51,176 nucleotides of DNA from an uncultured Bacilli bacterium (GCA_947589195.1 CANPZX010000002.1:1-51176), one strand, 5' to 3'; numbered from the stretch's first letter, positions 10,825 to 35,561 are shown. The notes: generated from the sequence alone by a model not told the origin. Program-made: numbers and translations.

Positions 10825-11382
10825 TTAGCTAAAATATTTAATTGCCACGACAGTTGCTTTAGTTTTTAAAGCTGCTTCTATTCCTACCTCTGAATCTTCA
10901 AATATTATAGTATTTTCTGGAGTTTGATTGGTTTTTTCTAAAGCCAAAAGAAAACCCTCCGGATTAGGTTTAGGATTTTTTATATCATCAGCTGTTAAAA
11001 TTAAATCAAATAATTTAGTTTTCCCAGTATATTCTAAAATCTCATAAGTATTTTTCTTCGAAGCAGTTGTCACTAAAGCAATGATATAATCTTGTTTTAT
11101 TGCTTCAATTATATTAAATAAATGTTCATTAATTTTTACTTTATCTAAATATTTAGAATATAGTTCTTTTTTTCTATTATGGATATCCTCGATTATATCT
11201 TCTTTATAATTAGCAATGGGTGGGATAAAAATCTTATAAGAGCGTCCATTACATTCTCGACAATAATATTCATAGTCAATTTCTAAATTATGATAAGCTA
11301 AAGCTTCTTTATAAGCATAGTAATTAACATCATTTGTATTATATAAAGTTCCATCCATATCAAAAATAGCTAATTTTTTCAT
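10825..11382 (-). CDS. HAD-superfamily phosphatase
   Basis: FDMDGTL, KPNPEG, FEDSEVG; ATGA overlap with the upstream gene. Confidence 0.9.
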   Translation of the reverse strand: MKKLAIFDMDGTLYNTNDVNYYAYKEALAYHNLEIDYEYYCRECNGRSYKIFIPPIANYKEDIIEDIHNRKKELYSKYLDKVKINEHLFNIIEAIKQDYIIALVTTASKKNTYEILEYTGKTKLFDLILTADDIKNPKPNPEGFLLALEKTNQTPENTIIFEDSEVGIEAALKTKATVVAIKYFS

Positions 11383-13265
11383 GATTCAAATCTCTTTTCT
11401 ATATCGGCCGCGACAATTAAAAGTCCAGCATAAAAAAGTAAAACTCTTTCTTTATCTTTTTCAATTTTATAAGGCATCAACCGAAGCCAATGAATAATTT
11501 CATGGAAGAAAATACTTTTTAAGCCTTCTTTTCCAAATTTTTTTTCTAAGTAATTTACTAACTCTATAAAAAGATTATCGTAAACTAATGATTTAGTAAA
11601 AATAAATTCAATATTATTTTCATAATAAGATAAGTTCTTAGTATTCATTAAAAATTCATATCCACCATGTAAAGATTGAAATAATTTAGCATAATCAAGA
11701 TATGGAGAATTATGAATATTACCAGTATTGGGATCAATTAAATAAATGCTTTTTTTATTTTTAGTTTGATCATTTTTTAAACAAATAATATTTTCGATAG
11801 TAAAATCACCATGAATTTCCGAATAATTATCATTTTTAAAAGTATTATATAAATATTTAGTATTTAAATATTTTTTATAATAATTTAAATTATGATATTT
11901 TTGACCATTAATATAAATATATTCATAATTTTGAAGATTTTTAATATATGAACATTTTTCTATTTTTTCAATATTCTTTAACACTTTATCATTAATATAT
12001 TGCTCTATTGTTTTTTTATTTGCTTTACCAATTAATGTAGACTTATGTAATTTATCTATTTCATTTAAGGCATCTTTTAATTTATTCCAAGCTTCTTGAA
12101 AAGGTGTTAAATGAACATAATTAAAACAAGTAAGTGCATTAGGATTAAACTCCATATCATATGAGCATATATCCTCATTAAAATATTCAGAAGTAATTTT
12201 AGTTAATGATATTTTCTTTTCATATTTATGGATCCAATCTATTTGTTGTTTTAACTTTAAGGCATCATTTCCAAATGAATACTTTCGATAGAATGTTTGG
12301 TTATTCTTAATACATAAAATAGTTGTAGCATTACTTCCAGCTGAATAATCTTTAATAACTGCCACATCACTATTTAACTTTAAATAATTTTTAAAAAAAT
12401 TACTATTATGATTATTAAAATATAATTCTAAAAATTGTAAACGATCATTTATATTTATTTGGGGCAATAATTCAATATACTCTTCTTTTTTCGAAGCTTT
12501 TAAAAAGTAAGAAACTATAAATAAAGTAATAGCACTAAATACATAATAAATACAAATAGTTAAAATAATAGATAAATTAAAATCTTTAATCAAATAAATA
12601 AGACTAGATGTAATTCCACTTCCTGAAAAAAATAAATTAAAACTACTATAAACTAAATTAAAATCACTAATAGCTAAAGTTAATAAAAGACATGATAATA
12701 TATTCATAATCCAAACAATTAAAGAATAAATAATTAATTTTAGTTTGTTTACTTTAGACAAAATATTTTCAAAAGACATAATTGTAAACCATGATAATTT
12801 TAAAATTTTTAATTCAATATTTTTATTAAATGTTGAAGCTATTTTATAAATTATTTTCTTTAAAAATGGTTTTAATTTTTTTATAAGTAATATAAAAATA
12901 AGCATTAAAGTTAAAAAAGTTAAATAAAAAATTATATTATTTAAACTATCAAAGCCAAATATAAAGAAAATAATATAAATCAAAGAAACTAAAATAAAAT
13001 CGATAATTATTTCCACAATTATGGTAGCAAGTGAAAAAGAAAAACCATTTTTCATATGCTTTCCTGGTATATACACTCTTAATAAATAACCCAACCGAAA
13101 AGGAGCAAAAATATTTACAAGATTTCCCAAAGCTAAAGCTTGAGTTAATTTTTTATAATTTGGTTTTTCATATGGTTCAATAAATTGGGCTAAACGAAAT
13201 ATTTTAAAAATATTAGCAATCGTTAAAGTTAATATCGCTGCAATAATAAAAAGATGAGAATTCAT
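11379..13265 (-). CDS. Fusion of LPG-synthase-TM/flippase-like membrane domain and APH/choline-kinase-like phosphotransferase
   Basis: N-terminal ~255 aa polytopic region with GNLVNIFAPFRLGYLLR; C-terminal HGDFTIENI, LIDPN, DYAKLFQS. Confidence 0.75.
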   Translation of the reverse strand: MNSHLFIIAAILTLTIANIFKIFRLAQFIEPYEKPNYKKLTQALALGNLVNIFAPFRLGYLLRVYIPGKHMKNGFSFSLATIIVEIIIDFILVSLIYIIFFIFGFDSLNNIIFYLTFLTLMLIFILLIKKLKPFLKKIIYKIASTFNKNIELKILKLSWFTIMSFENILSKVNKLKLIIYSLIVWIMNILSCLLLTLAISDFNLVYSSFNLFFSGSGITSSLIYLIKDFNLSIILTICIYYVFSAITLFIVSYFLKASKKEEYIELLPQININDRLQFLELYFNNHNSNFFKNYLKLNSDVAVIKDYSAGSNATTILCIKNNQTFYRKYSFGNDALKLKQQIDWIHKYEKKISLTKITSEYFNEDICSYDMEFNPNALTCFNYVHLTPFQEAWNKLKDALNEIDKLHKSTLIGKANKKTIEQYINDKVLKNIEKIEKCSYIKNLQNYEYIYINGQKYHNLNYYKKYLNTKYLYNTFKNDNYSEIHGDFTIENIICLKNDQTKNKKSIYLIDPNTGNIHNSPYLDYAKLFQSLHGGYEFLMNTKNLSYYENNIEFIFTKSLVYDNLFIELVNYLEKKFGKEGLKSIFFHEIIHWLRLMPYKIEKDKERVLLFYAGLLIVAADIEKRFES

Positions 13266-14005
13266 TTTAAAACCCTTTTAAAAATATCATTTTTTTCTGC
13301 TTCATAATATTCATCAGGTGTCCCAAATGGAATATGTTCATCACAAGTAAAATTAGCAATTTTCATTCCTTGATTAGCCATTATATTATAAACACCACTT
13401 ACATAATATTCACTATAATTGCAATTTTCTAAATATTTTTGAGCACTCTCTAAAAATAATTTCTTATTTTTAAAATAATATGCCCCACAAATAGCATTAT
13501 CACTAATAACTTTTTTTTCGACAGTTTGAATAACATTATTATTTTCATCCATTTGTAAATAAGAATATTTAGGATCAGCTGATTTAAAAGTTAATAATGC
13601 CCCATCTAAATCATTAAAGTTACCTTGTCTACAATAATTATAAAAATCACTAGCTAAAAAGATATGATCACAATCATTAAAGATAATAGGATTATCATCA
13701 TTAATGTCTTTAATTCCTTCCATACAAGTCAAAACTGCCCCATTTAATAATTTAGGAATAACATTAATCTTAGCATTAGGAAAATATTTCTTTATAATTT
13801 TATCTATTTGAAATTCTTCAATATGTTGCTTTAAAACAACAAAAGTTAAATCTTCAATATCAATATAATTTGTTAAAGAAATAGTTGACCAGTATAAAAA
13901 TGGTTTTTCATTTATTTCAATTAAAGGCTTAGGTAAAACAAAACCATTTTTAAAAAATCTAGACCCAGCTCCACCCATTGGCATTACAACATGCAATTTT
14001 TTCAT
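13262..14005 (-). CDS. Nucleotidyltransferase (NTP-transferase, GT-A fold)
   Basis: PMGGAGSRF...PKPLI, IFNDCD, EKKVIS, GAYYF, FGTPDE. Confidence 0.85.
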   Translation of the reverse strand: MKKLHVVMPMGGAGSRFFKNGFVLPKPLIEINEKPFLYWSTISLTNYIDIEDLTFVVLKQHIEEFQIDKIIKKYFPNAKINVIPKLLNGAVLTCMEGIKDINDDNPIIFNDCDHIFLASDFYNYCRQGNFNDLDGALLTFKSADPKYSYLQMDENNNVIQTVEKKVISDNAICGAYYFKNKKLFLESAQKYLENCNYSEYYVSGVYNIMANQGMKIANFTCDEHIPFGTPDEYYEAEKNDIFKRVLK

Positions 14006-14032: not shown

Positions 14033-15055
14033 TTAGTTATCTTTTAATCTTTCTAATAATTCACACTCGTTCTCAATAACTCTTTTTAATCCTTCTCTAA
14101 TATCAATTTTAGGTTCCCAAACATATTTTTCTTTAGCATAAGTATTATCGCATAAAGAATATTTATTTATTTCATTTTTTAAAATACTCTCTTTAATTTT
14201 ATATTCCCCTTCAAATAAACTAGGATATTTTTCCCAATAATGACTATCATTAGCATACTCTGGTTTTATATCTTTATGCATTATTTCAGAAGCTATTTGA
14301 TACATTTCATTAACTGAATAATTAACCATAGATGAGCAATTAACACAATCAAAACCTTCGCCTTTTTGAACAGCAATAGCTAAATCAATTAAATCATCAA
14401 CATAAATATAATCTCTTCTTTGATTACCATCAGAATGGAAAATAGGAGTTCTATCATAAAATAATTCTCTTATCATATATGCAACAAAAGGTGGTTGTTT
14501 TCTTAAACAATCAATATGAGGGCCATAAACATTTGCAAATCTTAAACAAGTAACATTCATTCCATATGTATCACAAAAAGATTCAGCAAATCTTTCAGCA
14601 CAATACTTCGTATTAGGATATATCAAAGTTGGTAATTCAAAATTACTTTCAACAGTTGGAAATTTAGTTTCATTTTCATACATTGCATTAGTACTAGCTT
14701 GAATTACTTTTTTAACCCCATATTTTCGACTATTTTCTAAAATGTTAACCAACCCATTAACATTAACATCAATGGCTTCACAAGGATTAGATTGGCAATC
14801 CGGAAGTGGAGCTATTCCTGCAATATTATAAACATAATCAATTTTATTCTCTTTAAATATCTTTTCAATTCCCTCTTTATCCCGAATATCCATCTTAATA
14901 ATAGAATTTTCAAAATCAACATCTTCAAATTTTAAATTATCTACTTTTCCATAAGAGAAATTATCGATTAAAATTAAATCGTTATTCTCTTTCCATAAAC
15001 GATGCGCTAATTGAGAGCCGATGAATCCAGCTGCTCCAGTTATTAATATTTTCAT
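14033..15055 (-). CDS. NAD-dependent nucleotide-sugar epimerase/dehydratase
   Basis: ITGAAGFIGS, YPNTK, RFANVYGP, RDYIYVDD. Confidence 0.92.
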   Translation of the reverse strand: MKILITGAAGFIGSQLAHRLWKENNDLILIDNFSYGKVDNLKFEDVDFENSIIKMDIRDKEGIEKIFKENKIDYVYNIAGIAPLPDCQSNPCEAIDVNVNGLVNILENSRKYGVKKVIQASTNAMYENETKFPTVESNFELPTLIYPNTKYCAERFAESFCDTYGMNVTCLRFANVYGPHIDCLRKQPPFVAYMIRELFYDRTPIFHSDGNQRRDYIYVDDLIDLAIAVQKGEGFDCVNCSSMVNYSVNEMYQIASEIMHKDIKPEYANDSHYWEKYPSLFEGEYKIKESILKNEINKYSLCDNTYAKEKYVWEPKIDIREGLKRVIENECELLERLKDN

Positions 15056-15762
15056 TTTACTTGTTCTCCTTTTCTTATTTTAATACTATCTTTCATAATA
15101 ATTATACTTTGGCGAATTTTAGATTTCAAGCCTTTATTCCATGACGATTGGCCTTTTTTTCGCTTTTCCATATTTACTTTAAATCTTTTAATTATATACT
15201 TTTCTTTTTTAGCTTGATAGTATGTATACAATTCAATTGAAAAGTCATATGGTGCTTTTTCCAAACGTTTTAATAATTCGCGATTAAATAAAACTGGAAT
15301 AGCTCCGATATCATTCATTTTTTTGCCAAACACTAAAAACTCAAAAATGGTCATACTACCTGTAAAGAAGCAATCAAGAAGACTACGGTTTTTTCGGCGA
15401 CCTTTTAAAAAATATTTTTGTGAAGAATCAGCTTCATTTTCTAAATAATTTATTAGTTTTAACATATCATCAGGTGATACTTGCAAATCCGCATGAAGCC
15501 AACCTACAAATTCTCCTCGAGCAACTTTTAAACCTTGTTGTAATCCATATCCATAACCCTGATTAGTTTTAACATAAACTTTTTGAAAATGTTTTTCATC
15601 AAGTTTTAACTTTTCAAAAACTTCTTTACTATTATCTTTAGATCCATTTTCTACTAAAATAAATTCTGTTTCAGCAAATTTAGGAAACTTTTTTAAAGTA
15701 GCTACTAAATTCTTTAAATTTTCGCTTTCATTATAGCAAGGAATAACTATTGAATATTTCAT
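15052..15762 (-). CDS. GT2 polyprenol-phosphate glycosyltransferase (GtrB/DPM1-like)
   Basis: SIVIPCYNE, VENGSKD, NQGYG, HADLQ, RKKGQSSW. Confidence 0.85.
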   Translation of the reverse strand: MKYSIVIPCYNESENLKNLVATLKKFPKFAETEFILVENGSKDNSKEVFEKLKLDEKHFQKVYVKTNQGYGYGLQQGLKVARGEFVGWLHADLQVSPDDMLKLINYLENEADSSQKYFLKGRRKNRSLLDCFFTGSMTIFEFLVFGKKMNDIGAIPVLFNRELLKRLEKAPYDFSIELYTYYQAKKEKYIIKRFKVNMEKRKKGQSSWNKGLKSKIRQSIIIMKDSIKIRKGEQVK

Positions 15763-15783: not shown

Positions 15784-17178
15784 CTATTTTATTTCATCAA
15801 AGCATTCATGGTTTTGACAGTAATCATTTGATACAGGAATTGGTACAGTTACATTCATATGTGGAGGGCTAATTTGAATATTAGCATACTTTTTATTTTT
15901 ATAATCTACATATGGTTCAATTTCGAATATTTTTTGACTAGTTTCAAATTCAGGATGATTTATATTTCTAACAAAAAAGAATAAAGCAAAAATTAAAAAT
16001 CCGATTTCAATACTTTTAAAAGTTTGATTGACTAGACTTATATTAGAAAGTGATATGGCTATTCCTAAAAATACAAATGTTGCTGGTAAAACGTGATACC
16101 ATATTTGATAACTAATTCCAGACGTTATTTCTAAAAAATAAGCAATAAAATCTACTCTTTTAAAATTCATCATAAAATATAAAATAAAAATATCTAATAT
16201 AACTAAAATGCAAGTTTTTAAATTTTTAGTTTTATAAAACATACCTATAATAATTAACCAAAGTATTGAGCCTGTAAATATATTTAATTTAGCTACACAA
16301 AGTGCTGAAAAAGTATCAGTTCCAAAAACCATATTTATACTAGAAATAAGCAGTAATAATGAATAATAAGCTACACTTATTAAGTGTCCTAAAGATAAAT
16401 CAATTTTAACAAGAGTTTCAACATCAGTTATAAATAAAATGGCATATGCTTGAATCAATAGAAATAATCCCATTAATATTAGTTTAATTAAATTGTGTTT
16501 GCCAAAATTTTTAAGCTTTATACAACCCCCCCCCCGAAGGTATTTAATAAAGCCAATCTTTTCCAGAATATAGTACATTAAAGCGAAGCCTAATATTAAT
16601 GATGATGCACTAGAAATTATTGATATTAAAACCAAAGGTAATATTACATAAGATGGCATTTTATCATGCAATAAATTTAGGGATACTAAAAAGATTAGTA
16701 ATCCACACCACCAATGAATAGCTACACCATTATATAATAACCAAGCAAAATTAGAAATTAAAATAATAACTAGAGCAGAAATTATAACTCTTTTTCCTCG
16801 ACTTTTAATAATATTTTCAAAACTACTTGAAGTAAAATAAGTAGCTACAAATGCCGAGAATAATATAGATAACCATTTAAAAGTATTAGCTAAAACTACT
16901 GCACTATTAGTTAATTTAGCAAAATTAACTGCAATAAAAGCAAATATCCTTGATAAAGTATCAAAATAACCACCATAAGTTAATTTAAATGAACCAAATC
17001 CATATTCCATATATTGTTTGGTAAAAATAGAACCATCCTCTAAAAACATATAAGGAGCTTTAATAATTTCCGGATTAAGAATAACTAACAAACAAATAAA
17101 TAAAAAGAAAATTATAATTAATAAAAACCAATTATTATTTAAAATTTTAGATGATTTTATTTTCTTACTTATTTTCAT
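15784..17178 (-). CDS. Polytopic membrane protein, putative GT-C/GtrC-like glycosyltransferase (paralog A, contains G10 tract)
   Basis: About 11 hydrophobic segments; EDG..F...YGGY....R motif in the first external loop; located next to gtrA/gtrB-like genes. Confidence 0.7.
   Translation of the reverse strand: MKISKKIKSSKILNNNWFLLIIIFFLFICLLVILNPEIIKAPYMFLEDGSIFTKQYMEYGFGSFKLTYGGYFDTLSRIFAFIAVNFAKLTNSAVVLANTFKWLSILFSAFVATYFTSSSFENIIKSRGKRVIISALVIILISNFAWLLYNGVAIHWWCGLLIFLVSLNLLHDKMPSYVILPLVLISIISSASSLILGFALMYYILEKIGFIKYLRGGGCIKLKNFGKHNLIKLILMGLFLLIQAYAILFITDVETLVKIDLSLGHLISVAYYSLLLLISSINMVFGTDTFSALCVAKLNIFTGSILWLIIIGMFYKTKNLKTCILVILDIFILYFMMNFKRVDFIAYFLEITSGISYQIWYHVLPATFVFLGIAISLSNISLVNQTFKSIEIGFLIFALFFFVRNINHPEFETSQKIFEIEPYVDYKNKKYANIQISPPHMNVTVPIPVSNDYCQNHECFDEIK
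16421..16995. repeat. 575-bp block identical to 18058-18632
   Basis: Read base by base at offset 1637 with no mismatch seen; flanks diverge. Confidence 0.9.
16526..16535 (-). repeat. G10 homopolymer within paralog A
   Basis: Ten C on the plus strand; encodes RGGG in frame. Confidence 0.95.
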
Positions 17179-17184
17179 TCATCA

Positions 17185-17274
17185 CACCTCTATTTTTGAC
17201 ATTTAACTTATATATATAGTTTAACAAATTTATTTTTTAAATACTACTTTTTTATAATAGAAAAATTAACAATC
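17185..17274 (-). repeat. Duplicated upstream region with a decayed gtrA 3' end (copy of ~18822-18910)
   Basis: CACCTCTATTTTTGACATTTAAC shared; (TA)5 here versus (TA)4 in the other copy; degenerate copy of the IVNFLLQKTVVFKK* coding sequence. Confidence 0.85.
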
Positions 17275-17414
17275 AAAACTAGATCTGTTTAATATATTTT
17301 TTAACTGCTATTTTTATTTTATCTATTAAATAAATTCCTATTCTAAAAAAGAAAAGTAAAAAATATAAATTTAAAATGATAGGAGAAAACATTGAATATT
17401 TTCTAACTATTTAT

Positions 17415-18815
17415 CTATTTTTGCTTTTCTATATGAATACATTCATGATTATCACAGTAAGAATTTTTAACAGGAATCAAAACTTTAAAATCCAGAAGGT
17501 CCGGACTAATTTTAACTAAAGCACATTCTTCATTATTAAAATCAACATATGGCTCAATTTCATTAATATTTTGACTAGTTTCAAATTCAGGATGATTTAT
17601 ATTTCTAACAAAAAAGAATAAAGCAAAAATCATAAAACTTATTTCTAAAACACGATAATTAAATGATATATTTTTAAGATTATTAAGTACAATCATTATA
17701 ATAAAAAATGATAATACCGCGGGTAAAACATGATAATAAACTTGGTAACTAGATCCAGAAGTTATTTCATGATAATAAGTCATAAATTCTATTTTTTTAA
17801 AATATATCATAAAATATAAAATAAAAATATCTAATATAACTAAAATGCAAGTTTTTAAATTTTTAGTTTTAAAAGCTAAATTTATAATAATTATCCAAAA
17901 AATTGAACCAACAAAAATATTTAATTTAGATACCCCCAATGCCAAAAAGGTATCTGTACCAAAAACAAAATTTATACTGGAAATAAACGATAATAATGAA
18001 TAATAGGCTATACTTATTAAGTGTCCTAAAGATAAATCAACTTTACTAATAGTTTCTACATCAGTTATAAATAAAATGGCATATGCTTGAATCAATAGAA
18101 ATAATCCCATTAATATTAGTTTAATTAAATTGTGTTTGCCAAAATTTTTAAGCTTTATACAACCCCCCCCCCGAAGGTATTTAATAAAGCCAATCTTTTC
18201 CAGAATATAGTACATTAAAGCGAAGCCTAATATTAATGATGATGCACTAGAAATTATTGATATTAAAACCAAAGGTAATATTACATAAGATGGCATTTTA
18301 TCATGCAATAAATTTAGGGATACTAAAAAGATTAGTAATCCACACCACCAATGAATAGCTACACCATTATATAATAACCAAGCAAAATTAGAAATTAAAA
18401 TAATAACTAGAGCAGAAATTATAACTCTTTTTCCTCGACTTTTAATAATATTTTCAAAACTACTTGAAGTAAAATAAGTAGCTACAAATGCCGAGAATAA
18501 TATAGATAACCATTTAAAAGTATTAGCTAAAACTACTGCACTATTAGTTAATTTAGCAAAATTAACTGCAATAAAAGCAAATATCCTTGATAAAGTATCA
18601 AAATAACCACCATAAGTTAATTTAAATGAACCGAGTCCATATATAAAATACTCTTTAGCAAAAACCCAACCATCTTCAGCAAAAATATAAGGAACTTTAA
18701 TAATTTCTGGATTAAGAATAACTAATAAAACGATAAATAAAAAGAAAGTCATAATTAATAAAAACCAATTATTATTTAAAACTTTAGATGCTTTTATTTT
18801 CTTTCTCAGTTTCAT
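17415..18815 (-). CDS. Polytopic membrane protein, putative GT-C/GtrC-like glycosyltransferase (paralog B, contains G10 tract)
   Basis: Tandem paralog of 15784-17178 with the same motifs. Confidence 0.7.
   Translation of the reverse strand: MKLRKKIKASKVLNNNWFLLIMTFFLFIVLLVILNPEIIKVPYIFAEDGWVFAKEYFIYGLGSFKLTYGGYFDTLSRIFAFIAVNFAKLTNSAVVLANTFKWLSILFSAFVATYFTSSSFENIIKSRGKRVIISALVIILISNFAWLLYNGVAIHWWCGLLIFLVSLNLLHDKMPSYVILPLVLISIISSASSLILGFALMYYILEKIGFIKYLRGGGCIKLKNFGKHNLIKLILMGLFLLIQAYAILFITDVETISKVDLSLGHLISIAYYSLLSFISSINFVFGTDTFLALGVSKLNIFVGSIFWIIIINLAFKTKNLKTCILVILDIFILYFMIYFKKIEFMTYYHEITSGSSYQVYYHVLPAVLSFFIIMIVLNNLKNISFNYRVLEISFMIFALFFFVRNINHPEFETSQNINEIEPYVDFNNEECALVKISPDLLDFKVLIPVKNSYCDNHECIHIEKQK
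18058..18632. repeat. 575-bp block identical to 16421-16995
   Basis: Direct comparison of the two copies. Confidence 0.9.
18163..18172 (-). repeat. G10 homopolymer within paralog B
   Basis: Ten C on the plus strand, in frame. Confidence 0.95.
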
Positions 18816-18864: not shown

Positions 18865-19245
18865 TTACTTTTTAAATACTACTGTTTTTTGTAATAAGAA
18901 ATTAACAATCATAGCTAAACATGTAGCCAAAATAAATGAAATTATTTTTAAATTAGTTAATTTATAAACTATAGTATTTGTAATTGTATTACATAAAATA
19001 TTAATTATTTGACAACCAATATATTTTACTATTAATAAGGCATGTGTTTTTTCTTTTACAGAAAATGTCCAATTTTTATTAAAAATATAGGAAAAAGTTG
19101 TTGCCAATATCATAGAAATTAATTTTGCTAACGTAATATCAATTTTTTGGCTGAGTAACATATAAAAGATAAAATCTATTGTTGTAGATATGCCTCCTAT
19201 AATTAGAAATCTAAATTCTTTTTTATATTTATTTAATACATTCAT
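18865..19245 (-). CDS. GtrA family flippase (start probably 19245)
   Basis: RFLIIGGISTTID, SYIFNKNWTF, NFLLQKTVVFKK; four TM segments. Confidence 0.9.
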   Translation of the reverse strand: MNVLNKYKKEFRFLIIGGISTTIDFIFYMLLSQKIDITLAKLISMILATTFSYIFNKNWTFSVKEKTHALLIVKYIGCQIINILCNTITNTIVYKLTNLKIISFILATCLAMIVNFLLQKTVVFKK

Positions 19246-20599
19246 AATCGTCACAATACCTTTCATTTACAGGAACATCTACACACCAATTAACCCATCT
19301 TGGAGGAATTGAAAGACACCCTGTATGACTAGAATTAAATTCTACATATGGTTCTATCTGATAAACATTCATAATATAAGATAAATCAGGAGCATTATAA
19401 TTTTTAATTAAATTTAAAACTACATATAATGTAATAATACCTAAAGAGTAAACAAAACCAGAACGTAAAATTTTACCATTATTTAAAGTATTTTCTATTA
19501 ATATGGCAAAAATAAATATAACTAAAAGACAAGGAATAACATGATACCAAATAGTATAAAATTCATTTAACAATTGTTGATAATATCCAATATAATCATT
19601 TATTTTAAAGAGAATCATTACATATGTAAGTAATATAGTTCCAAAAAAGTAAATTAAATATTTAGTTTTTTTGTATTTTACAAAATAATAAACAATTATT
19701 GACCATAAAATAATAGATAAAGGAATAGCTATTCCTAATGAATTTAAAATTTTATATATATTTGTTCCAAAAATATAGTTAACACTAACTAAAGATAATT
19801 TTAATGATAAGTACGCTCTACTTATTAAACTAGATAAAGTAATGATTGTACCATCAGGATCTTTAGCAATAATTAGTATGGCATATGCTTGAATCGCTAA
19901 AAAACAAAGTAATAATATCATTTTTAATATTACTTTTTTATCAAACTCTTTTATAGTTTTTTTAAATCCATTATTCTTTATTTTATCTATCAAATAAATT
20001 CCTATTCCAAAAACTAATGTAAAAGATATAGGTGTTGTCAAAATAGAAATAAGAAGTAAAATAAAATTAAAACCTTTAGGATATTTGCCATTTATTATTT
20101 GAATAGTACAAAAACAAGTAAATAACCCTGCCCACCAATTTAAAGATACCATACAATATAAAATTGCCAAAAAGTTAGAAGAAAATAACAATAACAAAAT
20201 ACTTAATATTAACCTAATTGATTTATTTTTTATAATATCATCAAAATTGTGACAATTTAAATAATTAATCACATATAAATTAATAAATATGGAAATAAAT
20301 TTACTTACTTGACACATAACAATCGCACTATTAAATATTTTACCAAAACTAACTGCAACAAGAGCAACTATCCTTGGCAAAAGATAAAAATAGCCACCAT
20401 ACGTTTGAAAAAATGATTTTAAGCCATTGTTTAAAATACCATTTAAAAAAACCGGACCATCTTCCATCATTATATATGGCTCTTTAATAACCTCAAAATT
20501 TAAACCTATTAAAACAATAGTTAAAATAACAAATGTAATTATTGGCCAATACTTTTTTTCAGTTATGCTACTAATTTTTTTGATTATTTTTTCTGACAT
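19229..20599 (-). CDS. Polytopic membrane protein, putative GT-C/GtrC-like glycosyltransferase (divergent paralog C, no G tract)
   Basis: EDGPVF, TYGGYFYLLPR, IQAYAIL, WYHVIP and IEPYV motifs shared with paralogs A and B. Confidence 0.7.
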   Translation of the reverse strand: MSEKIIKKISSITEKKYWPIITFVILTIVLIGLNFEVIKEPYIMMEDGPVFLNGILNNGLKSFFQTYGGYFYLLPRIVALVAVSFGKIFNSAIVMCQVSKFISIFINLYVINYLNCHNFDDIIKNKSIRLILSILLLLFSSNFLAILYCMVSLNWWAGLFTCFCTIQIINGKYPKGFNFILLLISILTTPISFTLVFGIGIYLIDKIKNNGFKKTIKEFDKKVILKMILLLCFLAIQAYAILIIAKDPDGTIITLSSLISRAYLSLKLSLVSVNYIFGTNIYKILNSLGIAIPLSIILWSIIVYYFVKYKKTKYLIYFFGTILLTYVMILFKINDYIGYYQQLLNEFYTIWYHVIPCLLVIFIFAILIENTLNNGKILRSGFVYSLGIITLYVVLNLIKNYNAPDLSYIMNVYQIEPYVEFNSSHTGCLSIPPRWVNWCVDVPVNERYCDDYECIK

Positions 20600-20634: not shown

Positions 20635-23418
20635 TTAATTTTGTTTTTTATCGTTAGTTTTATTTATCATATAAACTAAATTTAAATATTCAAAAACATT
20701 AATAGTTGAATCTAACGAATAAGAATTTTCTAGTTTAAAATCTTGTTTAATTTGAGGATTTAAAATGTCGGTATAAACTAATGAACTAAAATTAGTACCA
20801 ATAAATTCTCCAGATAAATTAAGATTATATTTTTTAGCTAAGACAAGATAGTCATCAAAGAAAGCAAATATTCCATCATTAATTTGCTTCAATTTTTCAA
20901 TAAAGCTTTCATCAATATTTTCATTTTTATAAATAGGATTTCCATCATCATCAAATTTTATTAATTGACCAATCGGGGCGGTTAAAAAGCTTTCTAAAAT
21001 CATTGAAAAATTATATATATTTTTTTCACATGTTTCACTCTTAAAATTATAACAGAAACTTGCCTTGCCACCTAATTTTAAAGGTTTTATATTATCTGTT
21101 AGAATAAAATAATAACCATTAATTTTTTTATTTAATAATTTTATTAAATAATATTGAATTGTACCTGAGTATCCCAAATCTACAACCGCTACATTTTTCC
21201 CTTTAATATTTTTTTTGCAATATTTTAAATAATTATTACGTTCTTTATTAAAAATTTTCTTATATACATTAAAATTATCTTCTATATTTTTTAACACTTC
21301 ATCTTTTGAACTTTCAAGTTTAATAAATTTATCTTCTATATCTAAATCTAATCCTAATCGAGTTTTATATAAATTTTTTATGCTACCCTCGTATCCACTC
21401 ATCATAATTTCTTTAACATCTTCCATAGTTTCAATACAAGCAACAGATGTACTTCTTCTAGAAGTTAAAAAATATTTACTTTTTACTGGTTTAATTTTTA
21501 AAATTTTACAATATTTTTGATATAAAGGTTCTAAAAAATATCCTTCTCTTGCTAAAAATAATAATTCATCTGTATTATTTTTTTCACACTCTTTAGCTAA
21601 ATAATTAAAAAATTGAGCAAAAATCGGGCCAAAAATCGTATATCCTAATTCATTATAAGTATTTATACCGTATAATGTTTCATTAAATTTAAAAGGATTA
21701 TTATATAATTGTTTATTTACAATTAAACCTAATGCTACTTCATCACCAATTGTTCTTTTATTTTTATAATTATTAATAAATGTAGCATAATTAGATAAAC
21801 AAAACATCTTTTTAGATTGCATAACGTGTATAAATGGTTTACCCATATCACATAGCCTTTGAATATCAGAATGTTCATTATCTCCAATATGAATAGTACT
21901 TTTATTTTTAGTATAATTATTAAAATAATATTCCCATATTGCACCATTATCTTTTCTATAACCAACTTCAGATGAAACCAATAATTCATCCCAATTATCA
22001 TAACCACATTTATTTAACATTTTTTTAATTATATCGCTAGTTAAATACATATCACTTATTAAAATAATTTTTTTATTATCCTTTTTTAACCAGTTATAAA
22101 GTTCCAGCATTTCTTTTCTGGGAATTATAAAGTCTAATTCTAACTCTATTTCTTTTTCTTTAATTTTTTTACATTGATTATCATCTAAATTAGTAAGTTC
22201 TTTTATATTTTCATAAATTTCATCTATAGAACAATCACCTTTAAAATCTTTTGATACGCGAACATTATATTCAGCATTAATTCTAATTCTTTTAAAATCA
22301 ATTATTTTATATGTCTTTTTAACATAACTCTCTAATATTCCGATTAAATCACTAGGATTATAAATTTTTCTAGTAATTAATGTATCAAAAATATCAAATG
22401 AAATAATATCATAATTTTTAATTTTTTCATAAATATTTGTGGCATTTTGTTCATTATACTGATACATATTTTTTAAACCACTTTTTCTAAAGCAATTATT
22501 ACTTATATCAATTACTAAATAATTATATTTATTATTTTTAACTACTTGGGGAATCATTCTTTCAATAGCATGTGCTAATGTTCCATCATTTTTTCCATTT
22601 TCTTCCCCAAAATCTTTTTTAGTATAATTAAAGTCAAGAAAATTTTTAATAGAATCTATTTTTACCCAAAAAAAACTACCTACTGAATAATCAATATATT
22701 CATCATCCAAAGTAAAGCCTAATCTATTGGCAATTTTATTGGATTCAGGCTTATTATACAGCCATGTATGTGCCCAATATGGCATATCTGAATAAGTTTC
22801 AGGATATATTAATCCAATATTGTCCCCTTTTTCAAATTGATAAAATATTTGTTTTACCAAATTTTCGTCTTTTAAAAGACTATCCATCATATGTTGTCGC
22901 CAACCATCTTGTTGTTCTCCAGTTCTTATACTTTTTTTAGAATGACAGTGTAAAATATAATCATATTTTTCTAGATCATTCTTAAACAAAACAAACATCG
23001 GTCCAAAATCTCTTCCAAAATTTCCGGCTTTCTTAACAATGACTTTTTCAACATTTTTAATACTCTTAAACTTGTTTTCAATGCATTTAATTACTTCATC
23101 TGTAGCAACGGAAATATACAAATCAAATTTATATGGTATATTATTAAAATAATTAATAAATTCTTCAGCTAAATCAATATAATATAAATGAAGATGAACA
23201 GCAATTTTTTTATTAATTTTAAAATTAAGTTCATTTGTAAAATGTATATTATTTAAGTCTAATTGTTTAGGTGCTAAATTCATATCACTATAATTTTGAA
23301 TGTTTCTAAAAAATGGTACATGTTTTATAAGTTTATTTTTTATTTTTTGCTTTGTTGTATTTTTTATAGGAATTAATTGATAAAATCTTTTAATAAAAAT
23401 TATTAACTTTCTTTTCAT
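20635..23418 (-). CDS. RgpF-like rhamnan synthesis domain fused to HAD phosphatase and phosphoribosyltransferase-like domains (putative ribofuranosyltransferase)
   Basis: AVHLHLYY, NFGRDFGP, HCHSKKS, LAHAIER (RgpF); SFDIFDTL, ISDMYL, HIGDNEHSD (HAD); FLAREG and VDLGYSGTIQ (PRTase-like). Confidence 0.8.
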   Translation of the reverse strand: MKRKLIIFIKRFYQLIPIKNTTKQKIKNKLIKHVPFFRNIQNYSDMNLAPKQLDLNNIHFTNELNFKINKKIAVHLHLYYIDLAEEFINYFNNIPYKFDLYISVATDEVIKCIENKFKSIKNVEKVIVKKAGNFGRDFGPMFVLFKNDLEKYDYILHCHSKKSIRTGEQQDGWRQHMMDSLLKDENLVKQIFYQFEKGDNIGLIYPETYSDMPYWAHTWLYNKPESNKIANRLGFTLDDEYIDYSVGSFFWVKIDSIKNFLDFNYTKKDFGEENGKNDGTLAHAIERMIPQVVKNNKYNYLVIDISNNCFRKSGLKNMYQYNEQNATNIYEKIKNYDIISFDIFDTLITRKIYNPSDLIGILESYVKKTYKIIDFKRIRINAEYNVRVSKDFKGDCSIDEIYENIKELTNLDDNQCKKIKEKEIELELDFIIPRKEMLELYNWLKKDNKKIILISDMYLTSDIIKKMLNKCGYDNWDELLVSSEVGYRKDNGAIWEYYFNNYTKNKSTIHIGDNEHSDIQRLCDMGKPFIHVMQSKKMFCLSNYATFINNYKNKRTIGDEVALGLIVNKQLYNNPFKFNETLYGINTYNELGYTIFGPIFAQFFNYLAKECEKNNTDELLFLAREGYFLEPLYQKYCKILKIKPVKSKYFLTSRRSTSVACIETMEDVKEIMMSGYEGSIKNLYKTRLGLDLDIEDKFIKLESSKDEVLKNIEDNFNVYKKIFNKERNNYLKYCKKNIKGKNVAVVDLGYSGTIQYYLIKLLNKKINGYYFILTDNIKPLKLGGKASFCYNFKSETCEKNIYNFSMILESFLTAPIGQLIKFDDDGNPIYKNENIDESFIEKLKQINDGIFAFFDDYLVLAKKYNLNLSGEFIGTNFSSLVYTDILNPQIKQDFKLENSYSLDSTINVFEYLNLVYMINKTNDKKQN

Positions 23419-23439
23419 TTAAAATACATTCCTCCTGCT

Positions 23440-25545
23440 TTATCTTCTAAATATTTTATACTTTAATGCTCTTAACTTTCTTTTTAATCTTACCATTCTT
23501 TTTACAAATTTACTGGTATTGCTCATATAAAAAGCTGGAATATTTTCATCAGGAACAAATTCATATTCTTTACTTGGTGTAATAGGCTCTAAATGATATA
23601 ATGGTTTAATCTCTTCTTTCATATCATAATTACCGGCTAAAATTGCATTAACTGCCTCGACAAATTGTTTAAAGCCTACTGTTAAATCGTAATTTTTCAT
23701 ATATTTAGCACCAAATTCAGACATTTTTTTCATTAATTTTTCATTTTCATAAATTTTTAGTATAGCTGTAGCAATTGCTTCACTATTACTTTCAGCTAAT
23801 AAAATTCCACCATCTGGCATATCATATAGATTATTTTCTCTATATAAATCAACAACAGGTAATCCACACGCCATCATTTCAAAAGGTATTCTAGATGGAT
23901 TAGATGCACTAATACAAACTCCTACTTTACATTTATTATATAACTTACAACATTCAGTTATAGGAATAATATGTAAATTTGTTGTATCAAAACTGATTCC
24001 ACCTTCTACATTTGACCCAAATAAATAAATTTTTAAATTCGGATATTTTTCTTTTACTATTTTAATGGCATTTAAACCTAATTCTGCACATCTGCGCCAT
24101 TTCTCAGGTTGATAAATAAAACAAATGGCATCCTCTTTTTTTACATCTTTTAATACCTTGTAATTATTAGTATCGGCACAAAAATTAAAATATCTTGTAG
24201 GTTGATGATATTCATGAGATAATTTATTAGATAACCATCGACCTATAGTAATAAAGTTGAATCCATATTTATATGAATTTTCAGCCTTTATATAAGAATT
24301 TCCCATTGGTTCAAACCAAGGCTCAAAATCTTGAATAAAATAGCACTTATTTTTCACTGGCATATTTCTAACAGTTTCTGCAGTTGTCCAAGCAGTGGCA
24401 AATACTAAATCATAATCATATCGTAATCTTAATCCAACATATACCCCAGCTAAACATTGTCCATAAAAATCTTCTATCATTTTTTTCATATCTTCATTTG
24501 TAGATACAAAATCTTCATCAACATAAATATCTACTTCATATCCATAATGAATGAGAGCATTAGCATTTTGAATAATAGTTCTATGACCTCCAGAACCTTT
24601 TACGGGATATGGTAACACAATAGCAATTTTGTTCCTTTTAAAATTTCCTAAAATTTCTCTATTTTTTTTGCTAATAATATTTTTCATAAAGTTTAAGCGA
24701 ATTTTTTGCTTATGTAATATTTCATCCGTAGGAATATAATTATTATTAATTTCCGTTTGAATTTTTAATATTTCATTAAATTCGATATCAGCCTTAATAT
24801 TAGTAGTTACAGATTTTGAATGTTTTCGATAATAATTTAAAGATTCATGAAAATATGCAAGACTACCATTTTGTAAAACTTTATAGTATACATACCAATC
24901 TCCCGCAACTTTATATTCTTGAGCATTTAATAAAATTTCATTATAATCTTTCTTTTTCCAAACAACAGAAGAAACATTTAAAATTGTATTAGTATATGCT
25001 AGTCTTTCTTTAATAGCAGTCTCTCCAGAAATAACAAAATCTTCATCCCAATCTCCTGTTCTAAAAATATCACTTAAATCTCGAGAGTCATTAGTTATTA
25101 CCCGATTTTTTTCGTCAATTCTAGCTGATTCACAATATGAAAGTACAACATTCTTATTTTCAAAGCCTTTCATAACAGTTTCTAGAAAAGTTGGTTCACA
25201 TAAATCATCGGCTTCAGCAATCCAAAAATAATCGCCATTAACTTTTTCTAAACCTTTCTTCCATTGAGAAAAAACACAACCACTATTATGATCATTTATA
25301 ATAAATTTTACCGGGATATTTTTTATTTGTTTAATTTTCTTTTTTATAACATTAATACTATTATCTGTAGATTTATCATCTAATATAATTAATTCATATA
25401 TTGGATAGCTTTGCCTTAAAATAGAATCTATTCTTTCAACAATATATTTTTCATAATTATAATTTGGAATTATAACTGATACTTTTTTTACCTTTCCTTC
25501 CACTTTAGAAATTTTATTTTTATAAATATTTACCTTTTTTCTCAT
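23440..25545 (-). CDS. Bifunctional glycosyltransferase: GT2 plus WsaF-like GT4 rhamnosyltransferase
   Basis: SVIIPNYNY, WIAEADD; then SGGHRTI, ATAWTTA, YFIQDFEPWF, SRIPFEMMACG. Confidence 0.85.
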   Translation of the reverse strand: MRKKVNIYKNKISKVEGKVKKVSVIIPNYNYEKYIVERIDSILRQSYPIYELIILDDKSTDNSINVIKKKIKQIKNIPVKFIINDHNSGCVFSQWKKGLEKVNGDYFWIAEADDLCEPTFLETVMKGFENKNVVLSYCESARIDEKNRVITNDSRDLSDIFRTGDWDEDFVISGETAIKERLAYTNTILNVSSVVWKKKDYNEILLNAQEYKVAGDWYVYYKVLQNGSLAYFHESLNYYRKHSKSVTTNIKADIEFNEILKIQTEINNNYIPTDEILHKQKIRLNFMKNIISKKNREILGNFKRNKIAIVLPYPVKGSGGHRTIIQNANALIHYGYEVDIYVDEDFVSTNEDMKKMIEDFYGQCLAGVYVGLRLRYDYDLVFATAWTTAETVRNMPVKNKCYFIQDFEPWFEPMGNSYIKAENSYKYGFNFITIGRWLSNKLSHEYHQPTRYFNFCADTNNYKVLKDVKKEDAICFIYQPEKWRRCAELGLNAIKIVKEKYPNLKIYLFGSNVEGGISFDTTNLHIIPITECCKLYNKCKVGVCISASNPSRIPFEMMACGLPVVDLYRENNLYDMPDGGILLAESNSEAIATAILKIYENEKLMKKMSEFGAKYMKNYDLTVGFKQFVEAVNAILAGNYDMKEEIKPLYHLEPITPSKEYEFVPDENIPAFYMSNTSKFVKRMVRLKRKLRALKYKIFRR

Positions 25546-25655
25546 TATATATCTTTACTCCCTCAATAGTTAGTCATTAAATCAAAAAAATTTAGTCAGC
25601 AAAATGACTTAATACCTTTCAACAATTATAGCATAGGTAAATTTAGTTGTAAATT

Positions 25656-26507
25656 TTATAATACCCTATTTTTCAACATATCTTGCTTTAATATTTCTAA
25701 TGATTTTATTATCTCTTGTTGGCGATATTTATTTTTTAAGCGAGTGTCAGAATTAAACTTTTGATTTAACGATCCCCCCTCTTTATGAAATATTTCTAAA
25801 TTTGGATCATATAAAGTTATAAATTTTTGTTTTAGCATTCTTTGATATAAAAATTCTTCTTCATGATATAAAAAGGTTCTAGAATCAAATATATCTTTAT
25901 TTTTTTCATAATACAATTTTGAAAATATTAAAGCACAACCATGAAGGGCTACATTACATACAATTTTATCACCATTATGTAAAACTTTAGGTTTAATAAA
26001 TTTTCTTTTTAATTTTAAATAAATATTTAATAAGTTTGTTAATATTTTACTATTATATATAAATACTAATTTTTTAGAATATTTAATTTGTTTATTTACT
26101 TCACTTAAAGTTTTATAGACAGGAAAAGGATTAACAGAATCACCATTATTAGTGATAATTTTTGGGCCTAAAATAGCAAATTTATATTTTTGATAATCTT
26201 GATTAACTATTTTTAAAAAATCTTTTTGTTTTATTATCGTATCATTGTTTATAACAATTAAAAACTTTGGTTTATATTTAGTTATAGCTAATTCACACCC
26301 CTGATTATTTGCTTTAGCAAAGCCAATATTTTCTTCTAGTGTAATTAAATCATCACATATTTTTTTTAGTTTTTCTTCCTCTTTTAAATTTAAACTGTGA
26401 TTATCTACCACGATTATTTTTTTAGGTTCTTCTAATTTTTTAAGAGAATCTATACAAGCTATTGTATCTTTAATATTTTGATAATGTAAAATTATAAAGC
26501 AATTCAT
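25656..26507 (-). CDS. GT2 glycosyltransferase (rhamnosyltransferase-like)
   Basis: IVVDNHS, NIGFAKANNQG, INNDT, FLYHEE. Confidence 0.88.
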   Translation of the reverse strand: MNCFIILHYQNIKDTIACIDSLKKLEEPKKIIVVDNHSLNLKEEEKLKKICDDLITLEENIGFAKANNQGCELAITKYKPKFLIVINNDTIIKQKDFLKIVNQDYQKYKFAILGPKIITNNGDSVNPFPVYKTLSEVNKQIKYSKKLVFIYNSKILTNLLNIYLKLKRKFIKPKVLHNGDKIVCNVALHGCALIFSKLYYEKNKDIFDSRTFLYHEEEFLYQRMLKQKFITLYDPNLEIFHKEGGSLNQKFNSDTRLKNKYRQQEIIKSLEILKQDMLKNRVL

Positions 26508-27274
26508 TATACTTCCTCAGCAAAACCTTTTTCTAAGCGTTTAAATATTTGATAACTTATAAAACATAAAATTAAACAAATTATAAATAATGTTAGAAGA
26601 GCCGAAAATTCCGGATGAGAATTATAATAAAAAATATTACGATAAGCATTGATAATTGTAGTCATGGGATTAAAATTTAGAATTTTTTGCATACTACTTG
26701 GAAACATAGTACTATCATAAATAATTGGGGTAGCATAAAATAATAAGTTTATTACAAAGTTAATTATATATTCAAAATCACGTATATAAACATTAATAGA
26801 ACTAGTTATTAAAACAATCGCAATTTGAAATAAGCATTGCACAATAACTACTAGAGGTAAATAAATAATGTTATAAGTTATAGGTAAACCACTGCATAAA
26901 ACAAATATGATTATTATTGGTACGGAAATAAAGAAGTTTACAGCACCACTTATAACTAATGATATAGGTAATATTTCTCGGGGAAAATATACTTTTTTAA
27001 TAATAGCTCCATTATTAATCATACAACTAGTTCCTTGAAGAATCGACATTGTAAAAAAATTCCAAGGAATAATCCCAATTATTATATATGTCACATAATG
27101 AGGTTGAGTATTACGTAAAATATAAGGAAAAACAATCGCATAAACACAAGCCATTAGTAAAGGATTAATAAAGGACCACAATATACCTAAAAAAGATCCC
27201 TTATATTTTCCTCTAATTTCTTTCTTTATATTAGTCTTTAAAAGTTCGCGATAATTATATAAATTTTTAAACAT
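26507..27274 (-). CDS. wzm: ABC-2 polysaccharide export permease (Wzm/RgpC-like; start probably 27274)
   Basis: YKGSFLGILWSFINPL, IKKVYFPRE, FYATPIIY, NPMT. Confidence 0.92.
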   Translation of the reverse strand: MFKNLYNYRELLKTNIKKEIRGKYKGSFLGILWSFINPLLMACVYAIVFPYILRNTQPHYVTYIIIGIIPWNFFTMSILQGTSCMINNGAIIKKVYFPREILPISLVISGAVNFFISVPIIIIFVLCSGLPITYNIIYLPLVVIVQCLFQIAIVLITSSINVYIRDFEYIINFVINLLFYATPIIYDSTMFPSSMQKILNFNPMTTIINAYRNIFYYNSHPEFSALLTLFIICLILCFISYQIFKRLEKGFAEEV

Positions 27275-27275
27275 T

Positions 27276-28013
27276 TTAACCACACACCTTTAAGTAATTA
27301 TCTACAACTTTATTAGGATTACCATCCATTTTTATTTTACCTTCATATACCCAAATGGCTCGCGTACATAATTTTTTTACAGCTCCCATATCATGCGTGA
27401 CAATAACAATTGTTTTTTCACTATTTTTTAATTCTTTTAGTTTCTCCATACACTTATCTTGAAAATGTTGATCTCCAACAGCTAAAATTTCATCGATTAA
27501 TAAAATATCAGCATCAACATTAATAGCAACTGAAAAAGCAAGACGCATATACATTCCTGAGGAATAAGTTCTGACTGGGCTTTCAATAAATTCCCCTAAT
27601 TCGGAAAATTCAATAATATCATTAATTCTTTTATCAATTTCTTTTCTACTTAGTCCAAAAATAGAGGCGTTAAAATAAATATTTTCTCTACCAGTAAAAT
27701 CAGGATGAAAGCCAGCTCCAAGTTCTAGTAAAGATGTTAATTTACCATTAGTTATTATTTCTCCTTGATTTGGATATATTATTTTAGTCATTAATTTTAA
27801 AAGAGTTGATTTACCACTCCCATTAACCCCAATTAAAGCAACAGTTTCTCCTTTTTTAATATCTAAATTGATATTTTCTAAAACAATATGACTTTCACTT
27901 TTCTTTTTATTCCAAAAAACTAAACGTTCTTTTAAGGTACTAGGTTTATCATAATATAATTTAAAACTTTTCGTTACATTTTTTACCGTAATGGCGTTTT
28001 CCATCTTTTTCAT
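27276..28013 (-). CDS. wzt: ABC polysaccharide export ATPase (Wzt/RgpD-like, no C-terminal CBM)
   Basis: GVNGSGKST, YSSGMYMRLAF, IDEILAVGD. Confidence 0.93.
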   Translation of the reverse strand: MKKMENAITVKNVTKSFKLYYDKPSTLKERLVFWNKKKSESHIVLENINLDIKKGETVALIGVNGSGKSTLLKLMTKIIYPNQGEIITNGKLTSLLELGAGFHPDFTGRENIYFNASIFGLSRKEIDKRINDIIEFSELGEFIESPVRTYSSGMYMRLAFSVAINVDADILLIDEILAVGDQHFQDKCMEKLKELKNSEKTIVIVTHDMGAVKKLCTRAIWVYEGKIKMDGNPNKVVDNYLKVCG

Positions 28014-28050
28014 CTTCTTTCTATATTAGGATACCATTAAATTTAGAAAA

Positions 28051-29205: not shown

Positions 29206-29209
29206 AATC

Positions 29210-30131: not shown

Positions 30132-30159
30132 AAGAGTTTGCATTATCAACACAAACTCT
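30132..30159 (-). terminator. Terminator downstream of fic
   Basis: AAGAGTTTG...CAAACTCTT inverted repeat. Confidence 0.6.
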
Positions 30160-30974: not shown

Positions 30975-31073
30975 AAAACTATCTCCTTTTACTATTTTTC
31001 CCTTTATTTATACATATTTTCTTTTATCCTCTTTTTTAAAAGTAATTTATATATAGATCTATTTTTATCTATC

Positions 31074-31157
31074 AAAAAATGACATTACTCGATATAATGT
31101 TTTTAAACATAAACAATACACAAGAATCGAAGTAATGTCATGTCTAAAATTATATCA
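31074..31157 (-). promoter_or_regulatory. Extended -10 promoter followed by a terminator-forming leader upstream of fic
   Basis: TGaTATAAT at 31149-31157; inverted repeat arms 31126-31141 and 31079-31093 followed by a U tract. Confidence 0.55.
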
Positions 31158-31215
31158 GATATTATTAAAATTTTAAATAGTAATTTCACTTAAGTCAAAA
31201 ATTCACTTAATTTTA

Positions 31216-35552: not shown

Positions 35553-35561
35553 ACCTCCGCT

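Follow-up and report, generated by a model that had tools for sequence, protein, structure and literature searches.

Putative poly-G switches and multi-component glycosylation systems

In Campylobacter jejuni, genes for capsule, lipooligosaccharide and flagellar glycan carry intragenic G runs of about 8 to 11 nucleotides (nt) that act as frameshift ON/OFF switches and generate combinatorial surface states from a small, AT-rich, host-associated genome (PMC9561416). In Salmonella and phage P22, gtrABC combines GtrA, a GtrB-type family 2 glycosyltransferase (GT2) and a variable polytopic transferase, and the Salmonella version is phase variable in expression and alters the surface glycan (PMC2909390). 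Here we describe a locus reminiscent of both, in a window of 51,176 nt (the whole stretch of DNA analyzed) that makes up contig C2 of the 1.35-Mb, 88.55% complete genome (G000) of an uncultured Bacilli bacterium. Two tandem genes predicted to encode membrane glycosyltransferases of the GT-C fold each carry an in-frame run of ten G's (G10), beside genes for a GtrA-family protein and a GT2. By analogy, the mechanism would be that of a classic poly-G contingency locus, and the enzyme system resembles those of Gtr and of Gram-positive multi-component glycosylation.

The enzymes of C. jejuni are cytoplasmic and their host is Gram negative, whereas the GT-C proteins predicted here would act outside the membrane of walled Bacilli that possess MutS and MutL. 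Runs are also more abundant in our genome, with 85 in 1.35 Mb, mostly in two surface-protein families, against a reported 23 variable genes in C. jejuni 11168 (PMC9561416). The Salmonella gtr operon is switched as a whole and epigenetically, through DNA methylation at its promoter (PMC2909390), whereas the putative switch of the Bacilli locus is a coding repeat placed inside the acceptor-specific transferase only, one in each of two paralogs. Poly-G tracts within glycosyltransferase genes (pgtA and the lgt genes) likewise produce ON/OFF glycoforms in Neisseria (PMC2193922, PMC2191774), but those enzymes are soluble GT-A/GT-B proteins of Gram-negative pathogens. High-frequency ON/OFF variation of a surface polysaccharide also characterizes the capsular glucan/galactan synthase of Mycoplasma (PMC11658790). 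There, the enzyme is a processive GT2 synthase in a wall-less cell, in contrast to the predicted GT-C side-chain transferase of a walled one. The switch of Mycoplasma agalactiae is reportedly a poly-G tract in the synthase gene.

The gene arrangement fits the Gram-positive multi-component systems, exemplified by CsdAB/CsdCD/CsdEF with CflA in Lactococcus lactis, GacI/J/K/L in Streptococcus pyogenes and CsbB/YfhO/GtcA in Bacillus subtilis. In these systems, C55-P-sugar is produced by a GT-A enzyme and moved by a flippase of the GtrA type, after which GT-C enzymes of diverse sequence attach the sugar, outside the cell, to rhamnan, teichoic acids or other wall polymers; a single flippase can serve several GT-C enzymes (PMC8035078, PMC9574508). 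The present locus departs from them in that its GT-C family has no Pfam or NCBIfam model and in that RmlC is unmatched, the backbone thus possibly not being rhamnan. A term search of the two reviews returned neither 'phase' in PMC8035078 nor 'phase varia' in PMC9574508. Our literature searches retrieved no report of a coding repeat in a GT-C side-chain transferase of multi-component wall glycosylation, an absence that is not proof, nor any of phase variation in these uncultured Bacilli, in agreement with a first reading of this DNA made from the sequence alone (hereafter, the sequence-only reading), which knew of no such description in the lineage.

Two tandem GT-C-type genes sharing one poly-G tract

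The three paralogous genes, their tracts and the repeated segments between and within them are as follows.

15784..17178, minus strand: GT-C-fold paralog 1, an open reading frame (ORF) of 464 amino acids (aa), in frame at G10; GT-C fold by AlphaFold2 (AF2) model, no Pfam/NCBIfam match
17415..18815, minus strand: GT-C-fold paralog 2, an ORF of 466 aa, in frame at G10, with 81% aa identity to paralog 1
19229..20599, minus strand: GT-C-fold paralog 3, 456 aa, no tract, 35-36% identity to paralog 1
16526..16535, minus strand: G10 tract 1, codons 215-218, R-G-G-G-C, in the loop between predicted transmembrane helices (TM) 6 and 7
18163..18172, minus strand: G10 tract 2, in the same position and context as tract 1
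16421..16995, minus strand: 575-bp block, copy 1, containing the tract and 100% identical to 18058-18632; aa 63-254, roughly TM2-TM7 of the conserved GT-C module
18058..18632, minus strand: 575-bp block, copy 2, containing the tract and 100% identical to copy 1
17179..17414, minus strand: spacer of 236 nt between the paralogs, a mosaic of relics
17185..17275, within the spacer: relic of the gtrA 3' end and the paralog 2 leader, 91% over 93 nt
17313..17349, within the spacer: paralog-3-like GT-C relic resembling 19977-20013, 95% over 37 nt

The sequence-only reading had placed a mid-gene, in-frame G10 tract in each of the first two paralogs and none in the third. A run search and ORF reading confirmed the former, and paralog 3 indeed has no G/C run of at least 8. 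The plus strand reads C10 at both sites, and the minus-strand genes accordingly read G10; these tracts are the only G/C runs of at least 8 in the window. A search for G8 returned six overlapping matches, all belonging to the two tracts, against 0.14 expected, and none of 100 shuffles reached six. Both tracts occupy gene nt 644-653 (codon 215), are translated as R-G-G-G-C and leave the assembled consensus ON (in frame) for both copies. They fall in a K/R-rich loop that precedes TM7, is flanked by helices 191-207, 210-214 and 227-250 in the AF2 model of paralog 1 and, we infer, is cytoplasmic. Simulated G8, G9, G11 and G12 alleles encode products of only 219-222 aa, with TM7 and everything beyond it lost. 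Like recognized contingency loci, these genes therefore contain an in-frame homopolymer of at least 8 that is over-represented relative to composition and whose change by one nucleotide in either direction abolishes the full-length product.

The two G10 runs are one tract present twice rather than two independent tracts. Since the 575-bp block around them has 100% identity in the two genes, they are not separate observations. Block flanks are merely 75-83% identical between paralogs 1 and 2 at the DNA level, and aa identity is 72.6% over residues 1-62, 100% over residues 63-254 and 64.8% over residues 255-464. The identity of the block would stem from gene conversion or, possibly, from assembly collapse, and its presence means that tract length is not individually assignable to each copy from a short-read assembly. 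The two copies found in a relative, G014, are also most similar over the equivalent segment (93%, versus 68-71% in the flanks); homogenization of this GT-C module is thus recurrent. Relics in the spacer, as judged by their similarity to neighboring genes, represent traces of past duplication and deletion.

The block is also a direct repeat, perfect over 575 bp with its copies 1,637 bp apart, and the interval separating the two copies could be lost through recombination between them. Such recombination might even be the main source of variation at the locus, with deletion or duplication producing chimeric or extra GT-C genes, conversion swapping modules and the tract traveling as a passenger. 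The perfect repeat, the matching pattern in the G014 pair and the remnants of gtrA and an additional GT-C copy in the spacer all speak for this scenario. However, no joint or deletion form appeared in public contigs, where coverage is poor, and recombination leaves unexplained both the rare-codon homopolymer within the block and a genome full of similar runs, besides being a mechanism that does not exclude slippage. We consider this scenario quite unlikely. Conversion nonetheless bears on the sequence-only proposal of two independently switchable tracts. Two in-frame tracts do exist, and two independently switchable genes with four resulting states are possible from the sequence, but their independence is weakened because conversion can copy the tract state between genes across the shared identical block.

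Sequence families were silent on the nature of these proteins. Paralogs 1-3 had zero matches in Pfam and NCBIfam models, those of named bacterial GT-C families such as PMT_2 and YfhO included, none of 36 homologs scanned against Pfam had a match, and a PDB sequence search with a family profile (A2) gave no GT-C match, its best E-value of 0.025 belonging to an unrelated protein. The family looked sparse in a word-indexed protein search, with 8 proteins and no second member of the window protein's own cluster; a profile search collected 865 database representatives at E <= 0.001. From sequence comparisons, this is a predicted glycosyltransferase family without a name and without a Pfam or NCBIfam model.

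The claim of a GT-C-like fold was instead borne out by structure prediction. The AF2 model of paralog 1, built on a 64-sequence alignment, has a mean predicted local distance difference test score of 94.3 and a predicted template modeling score of 0.93. The top 10 Foldseek rows against the PDB are all GT-C enzymes (AftA, STT3, ALG9, ALG12), with PglB at rank 19 and E-values no better than 0.016. VIA, a Foldseek-independent fold search of 48,161 PDB chains, ranked GT-C-type structures in all of its first 20 places (Z 13.6-6.8, 262-358 residues aligned), namely, ALG12 (Z 13.6, 313 residues aligned, root mean square deviation 5.4), AglB (13.1), AftA (12.0), Pmt1/2 (11.9), STT3 (11.6), PglB (10.8) and ArnT (10.2) among them, and then dropped sharply to Z <= 6.3 and at most 101 aligned residues. 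Across the 64 sequences, E47 is invariant and D48 is at least 90% conserved; both lie at the beginning of the long helix (47-65) of the first loop that follows TM1. GT-C_A enzymes have their catalytic base in the first helix of the first luminal loop and are defined as a class by an N-terminal conserved module of seven TMs followed by a variable C-terminal module, which makes most acceptor contacts in the solved enzymes (PMC13503287). On the basis of the model and the fold searches, we accept a GT-C fold, with the two-module layout of the GT-C_A class, for these polytopic membrane proteins.

The tract itself is best described as a lineage-specific insertion of 13-15 nt, as deduced from alignments with relatives. 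R-G-G-G-C is absent, as a gap, from 8/8 homologs and from paralog 3 in a protein alignment where the loop varies in both sequence and length; in the DNA, 13-15 nt are missing from both G014 orthologs precisely where the tract sits, and none of 10 related loci contains a G/C run of at least 6. Twelve short database homologs were examined as possible frameshifted alleles, and none of them ends at a Gly run in the homologous loop. Same-species DNA was sought in metagenome contigs with a flank pattern allowing a variable G run, which gave 0 matches, and with a protein-guided scan, which retrieved only relatives at 49% identity.

One of the twelve short homologs, P0049 (385 aa), a distant one from another source, ends ...LVGGGGGVCLYRCL. 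A GGGGG stretch stands shortly before this C-terminal end, and the match to the family profile covers the first ~254 residues only. This protein may likewise be interrupted by a poly-G tract, or its end may be an artefact of a contig end.

A genome-wide set of poly-G runs

The window tracts belong to a much larger set. G/C runs in G000 number 22 of length 6, one of length 7, five of length 8, 10 of length 9, 65 of length 10 and five of length 11; the 85 runs of at least 8 compare with almost none expected in 1.35 Mb. These comprise 47 runs in one surface-protein family (A), 25 in another (B) and 13 elsewhere, so that 72/85 lie near the 5' ends of two surface-protein families. Family A proteins are ~375 aa long with an N-terminal membrane anchor, and their runs sit ~17-25 codons into the gene; the runs of family B, whose members are 300-1000 aa long, sit six codons in. 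In both families, G9 reads ON and G10 reads OFF, with 41 and 19 G10 members, respectively, and three G9 members each. The remaining 13 runs (two of G8, four of G9, five of G10 and two of G11) are the two described here, seven in other glycan genes and four in intergenic DNA. Locations outside the window are listed below.

C3:46539, C5:41977, C50:403 and C29:1314: examples of surface-family tracts
G000:C18:4000-23302: second polysaccharide locus (L024), with tracts at L024 positions 2744-2751, 5736-5744, 6854-6863, 9022-9030 and 15751-15760
L025 (G000:C76) 1808-1816, minus strand: G9 in a PMT_2-family GT-C gene, OFF
G000:C68:4233-4240; C4:31120-31130; C7:278-288 and 1256-1265: intergenic tracts

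The seven other glycan genes are in mixed ON/OFF frames. The second polysaccharide locus also encodes GT1s, a Wzx-like flippase, a UDP-galactopyranose mutase and a glycyl-radical enzyme; its three tract-bearing Acyl_transf_3 genes are OFF at G8, OFF at G9 (split into 206+103 aa) and ON at G10, and its two tract-bearing ATP-grasp genes are in frame (ON). In the PMT_2 gene, 72 upstream codons ending ...NCDEAMTAVNAKFMAGGG are in a different frame, and a G10 tract would give a protein of 527 aa, the distant homologs having open frames of 515-531 aa; those in G016, G029 and G030 have no G/C run of at least 7 and hence offer no orthologous tract for comparison. A weak hexapeptide-like gene with a tract is OFF. 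Among the intergenic tracts, the C68 run occupies the spacer of a promoter-like TTGACA-N18-TATAAT site and the C4 run follows a TTGACA, a placement from which these could be promoter-spacing switches.

Assembly or sequencing might, in principle, have created the tracts or their identity, either as a poly-G artefact or through a collapsed repeat copied into both genes, and some features are of the kind expected from it: 21/85 tracts are found no more than 100 nt from a contig end, typical short reads are shorter than the identical block and one public contig stops inside tract 1. On the other side, the tracts are in frame, at fixed positions within gene families and in consistent ON/OFF frames; a contig of run X1, which may be the source sample and not an independent one, reads through tract 2 unchanged and ends 18 nt past it; and a collapse, although able to mask differing copies, could not have generated the tract itself. 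G9-or-longer matches also occur in 29/30 genomes of the same genus, often by the dozen. Among 24 genomes outside the family, 14 have none, eight have 1-3 and two have 11 and 20. An artefact is therefore very improbable. The two ends of contig C70 (5,545 bases; 1-167 and 5380-5545) are identical over 67+90 nt, yet read C10 and C9, which means that they are a gene pair, arranged in tandem or as a loop, or that a single place is represented by two tract lengths.

Slipped-strand contingency switches are the most likely reading of these runs, given 85 of them against almost none expected, their location in surface families, promoters and glycan genes, and the coexistence of ON and OFF frames. For the locus in the window, we deem it fairly probable that the tandem, partly homogenized GT-C copies are phase variable within an Rgp-like envelope polysaccharide locus equipped with GtrA and a DPMS/ArnC/GtrB-like GT2. 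The part of the sequence-only claim of phase variability that stands is the contingency-like nature of the repeats, as reflected in their over-representation, their lineage-specific insertion, the truncation caused by a slip and the ON/OFF frames of other glycan genes; actual switching, as well as the donor, the acceptor and a benefit such as escape from phage or immunity, are what we infer.

Several observations weigh against this interpretation. Foldseek E-values are weak on their own, none being <= 0.001, and the 575-bp identity could partly reflect assembly collapse. G014, the sole relative with the orthologous gene pair, is tract-free, and the comparison of tract length and frame across related metagenome-assembled genomes (MAGs) that the sequence-only reading had proposed thus ends with a genome that has no tract to compare. 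RmlC (PF00908), the single dTDP-rhamnose pathway gene searched for, is unmatched in G000 at its level of completeness. Four further points would equally suit a stable, tolerated G10 insertion, i.e., a short glycine-rich stretch in a variable loop that conversion has copied and that switches too rarely to be useful. The in-frame state of both copies is what a stable coding insertion would give as well. Because MutS and MutL are present in the genome, the repair deficiency of Campylobacter, which is said to lack key repair enzymes (PMC9561416), does not apply. Contigs from four public runs (Logan; ~3-5x, fragmentary) list no indel or joint, although none of them spans a tract together with 31 nt of flank on each side and they are thus uninformative on length variation. 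Finally, three of four tract pairs with near-identical flanks are equal in length.

The poor conservation and variable length of the loop among homologs would add to the case for such tolerance. Against it stands the genome at large. GGG makes up only 11.9% of Gly codons, yet 14/95 Gly-Gly-Gly tripeptides are coded GGGGGGGGG (nine G's), when codon frequencies predict ~0.16; there are 85 runs of at least 8 but one run of 7; and other glycan genes, like the majority of family genes, have tracts that put them out of frame. Tracts as long as these are, to our knowledge, mutable in every system studied, and Neisseria and Haemophilus switch with mismatch repair intact. A stable insertion is thus unlikely, and a slipping tract remains our preferred explanation.

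Envelope polysaccharide locus, proposed mechanism and implications

The neighborhood of the tract-bearing genes provides candidates for the other components of a glycosylation pathway.

18865..19266, minus strand: GtrA-family small membrane protein, 133 aa, putative lipid-linked-sugar flippase (PF04138, E 6.3e-20)
15052..15762, minus strand: GT2, 236 aa, soluble type, putative polyprenyl-phosphate sugar synthase with a GtrB/GacI-like role (PF00535, E 7e-27)
14033..15055, minus strand: NAD epimerase/dehydratase (Pfam)
13262..14005, minus strand: nucleotidyltransferase (Pfam)
11379..13265, minus strand: 628-aa fusion of an N-terminal LPG_synthase_TM (flippase-like) domain to a long C-terminal part without a Pfam match at threshold
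10825..11382, minus strand: HAD phosphatase (Pfam)
20635..23418, minus strand: RgpF-domain protein (Pfam)
20635..30058, minus strand: Rgp-like polysaccharide assembly genes, namely, RgpF-domain, GT2+WsaF, GT2, ABC-2 permease, ABC ATPase, DUF1972-GT1 and GT2 (Pfam)
33462..37020, minus strand: GT1 (696 aa), a second GtrA-family gene (35562-35978) and a Glycos_transf_4 initiating transferase (35962-37020) (Pfam)

Along the minus strand, the genes run in the order RgpF-domain protein, paralog 3, GtrA, paralog 2, paralog 1, GT2, epimerase/dehydratase, nucleotidyltransferase, flippase-like fusion and HAD phosphatase, overlapping or separated by 21-49 nt, save for the 236-nt spacer between the tract-bearing paralogs. 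Promoter-like sites are no commoner than in shuffled sequence (127 versus 125.9 expected), and between 10500 and 24000 the minus strand has no terminator-like site, the sole one being on the plus strand. With these signals uninformative, operon structure is deduced from gene spacing alone. The 628-aa fusion lies beside the nucleotidyltransferase and the HAD phosphatase and may belong to a second decoration pathway. The polysaccharide locus is interrupted at 30159-33478 by genes for a Fic-domain protein and an AAA_14/DUF4143 ATPase, and the interval 30975-32254 contains no ORF of at least 110 aa.

The 133-aa protein exceeds the Pfam cut-off for PF04138 but falls below that of the NCBIfam model gtrA_1. 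The best PDB sequence matches of the GT2 are all polyprenyl-phosphate glycosyltransferases, namely, DPMS (5mlz, 3.8e-10), ArnC (9hwj, 4.9e-10) and GtrB (5ekp, 4.3e-7), and its 236 aa compare with 322-374 residues in those chains; in our reading of the sequence, it is a soluble, GacI-like form. The putative donor would accordingly be polyprenyl-phosphate-linked, as the adjacent DPMS/ArnC/GtrB-like GT2 and GtrA-family genes suggest. Linkage of the three gene types extends to two relatives, L014 with ORFs of 126, 462, 465 and 235 aa (GtrA, GT-C, GT-C, GT2) and L019 with ORFs of 462, 128 and 236 aa (GT-C, GtrA, GT2), identities being assigned from length, order and tblastn match; at this level, the locus is syntenic in both. 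The sequence-only idea of a GtrA/GtrB donor feeding three transferases thus holds as far as the presence of a GtrA-family gene and a GtrB/ArnC/DPMS-like GT2 beside three GT-C paralogs.

Components of Rgp/GAC-type pathways are present (RgpF, DUF1972+GT1, ABC2_membrane, ABC_tran, Glycos_transf_4). A rhamnan polymer, as a firm claim, was dropped in view of the unmatched RmlC family: the polymer may not contain rhamnose, or the RmlC gene may lie in the unassembled 11% of the genome. G000 has five penicillin-binding-protein matches and a Mur ligase, which make a wall polymer a reasonable, plausible acceptor. Decoration of a wall glycan, as proposed in the sequence-only reading, is accordingly plausible.

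In the mechanism that we propose, the GT2 would load a sugar onto undecaprenyl phosphate, GtrA would flip the lipid-linked sugar and each GT-C paralog would transfer it to its own acceptor site. The identical N-terminal conserved module would be common to both copies, and the C-terminal variable module, with 64.8% aa identity, would set the difference between them; a shared conserved module combined with a divergent variable one would fit a single donor and two acceptor specificities. Loss or gain of one G would bring a stop at 219-222 aa and turn the gene OFF, and a reverse slip would turn it ON again. As the donor GT2 lies downstream of both switchable genes in an apparent single operon, a premature stop may, speculatively, also affect all three transferases by polarity.

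A bolder extension can be formulated, which we put forward as a conjecture with rather low odds. The poly-G run would ride a module-sized conversion block, the conserved half of the GT-C protein, and so move the switch between paralogs, such that a single insertion could make an array of acceptor-specific transferases switchable. More widely, a genus of walled, repair-proficient gut Bacilli would keep a poly-G phasome (85 runs in 1.35 Mb, sharply peaked at G10) spread over surface families, promoters, O-acyltransferases, ATP-grasp enzymes and two kinds of GT-C, which would imply lineage-specific seeding of tracts or their holding at one length.

Phase-variable surface glycans are textbook knowledge for a few Gram-negative pathogens and hardly known for gut commensal Bacilli. 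If our interpretation is right, an abundant uncultured gut lineage would diversify its envelope sugars cell by cell, with consequences for phage host range and for recognition by antibodies (immunoglobulin A). It would also affect how MAG consensus sequences are read, since genes called 'broken' may simply be OFF. Finally, a likely function can be proposed from this locus for a GT-C family with about 865 representatives in the database, along with a division into donor and acceptor modules that is open to test.

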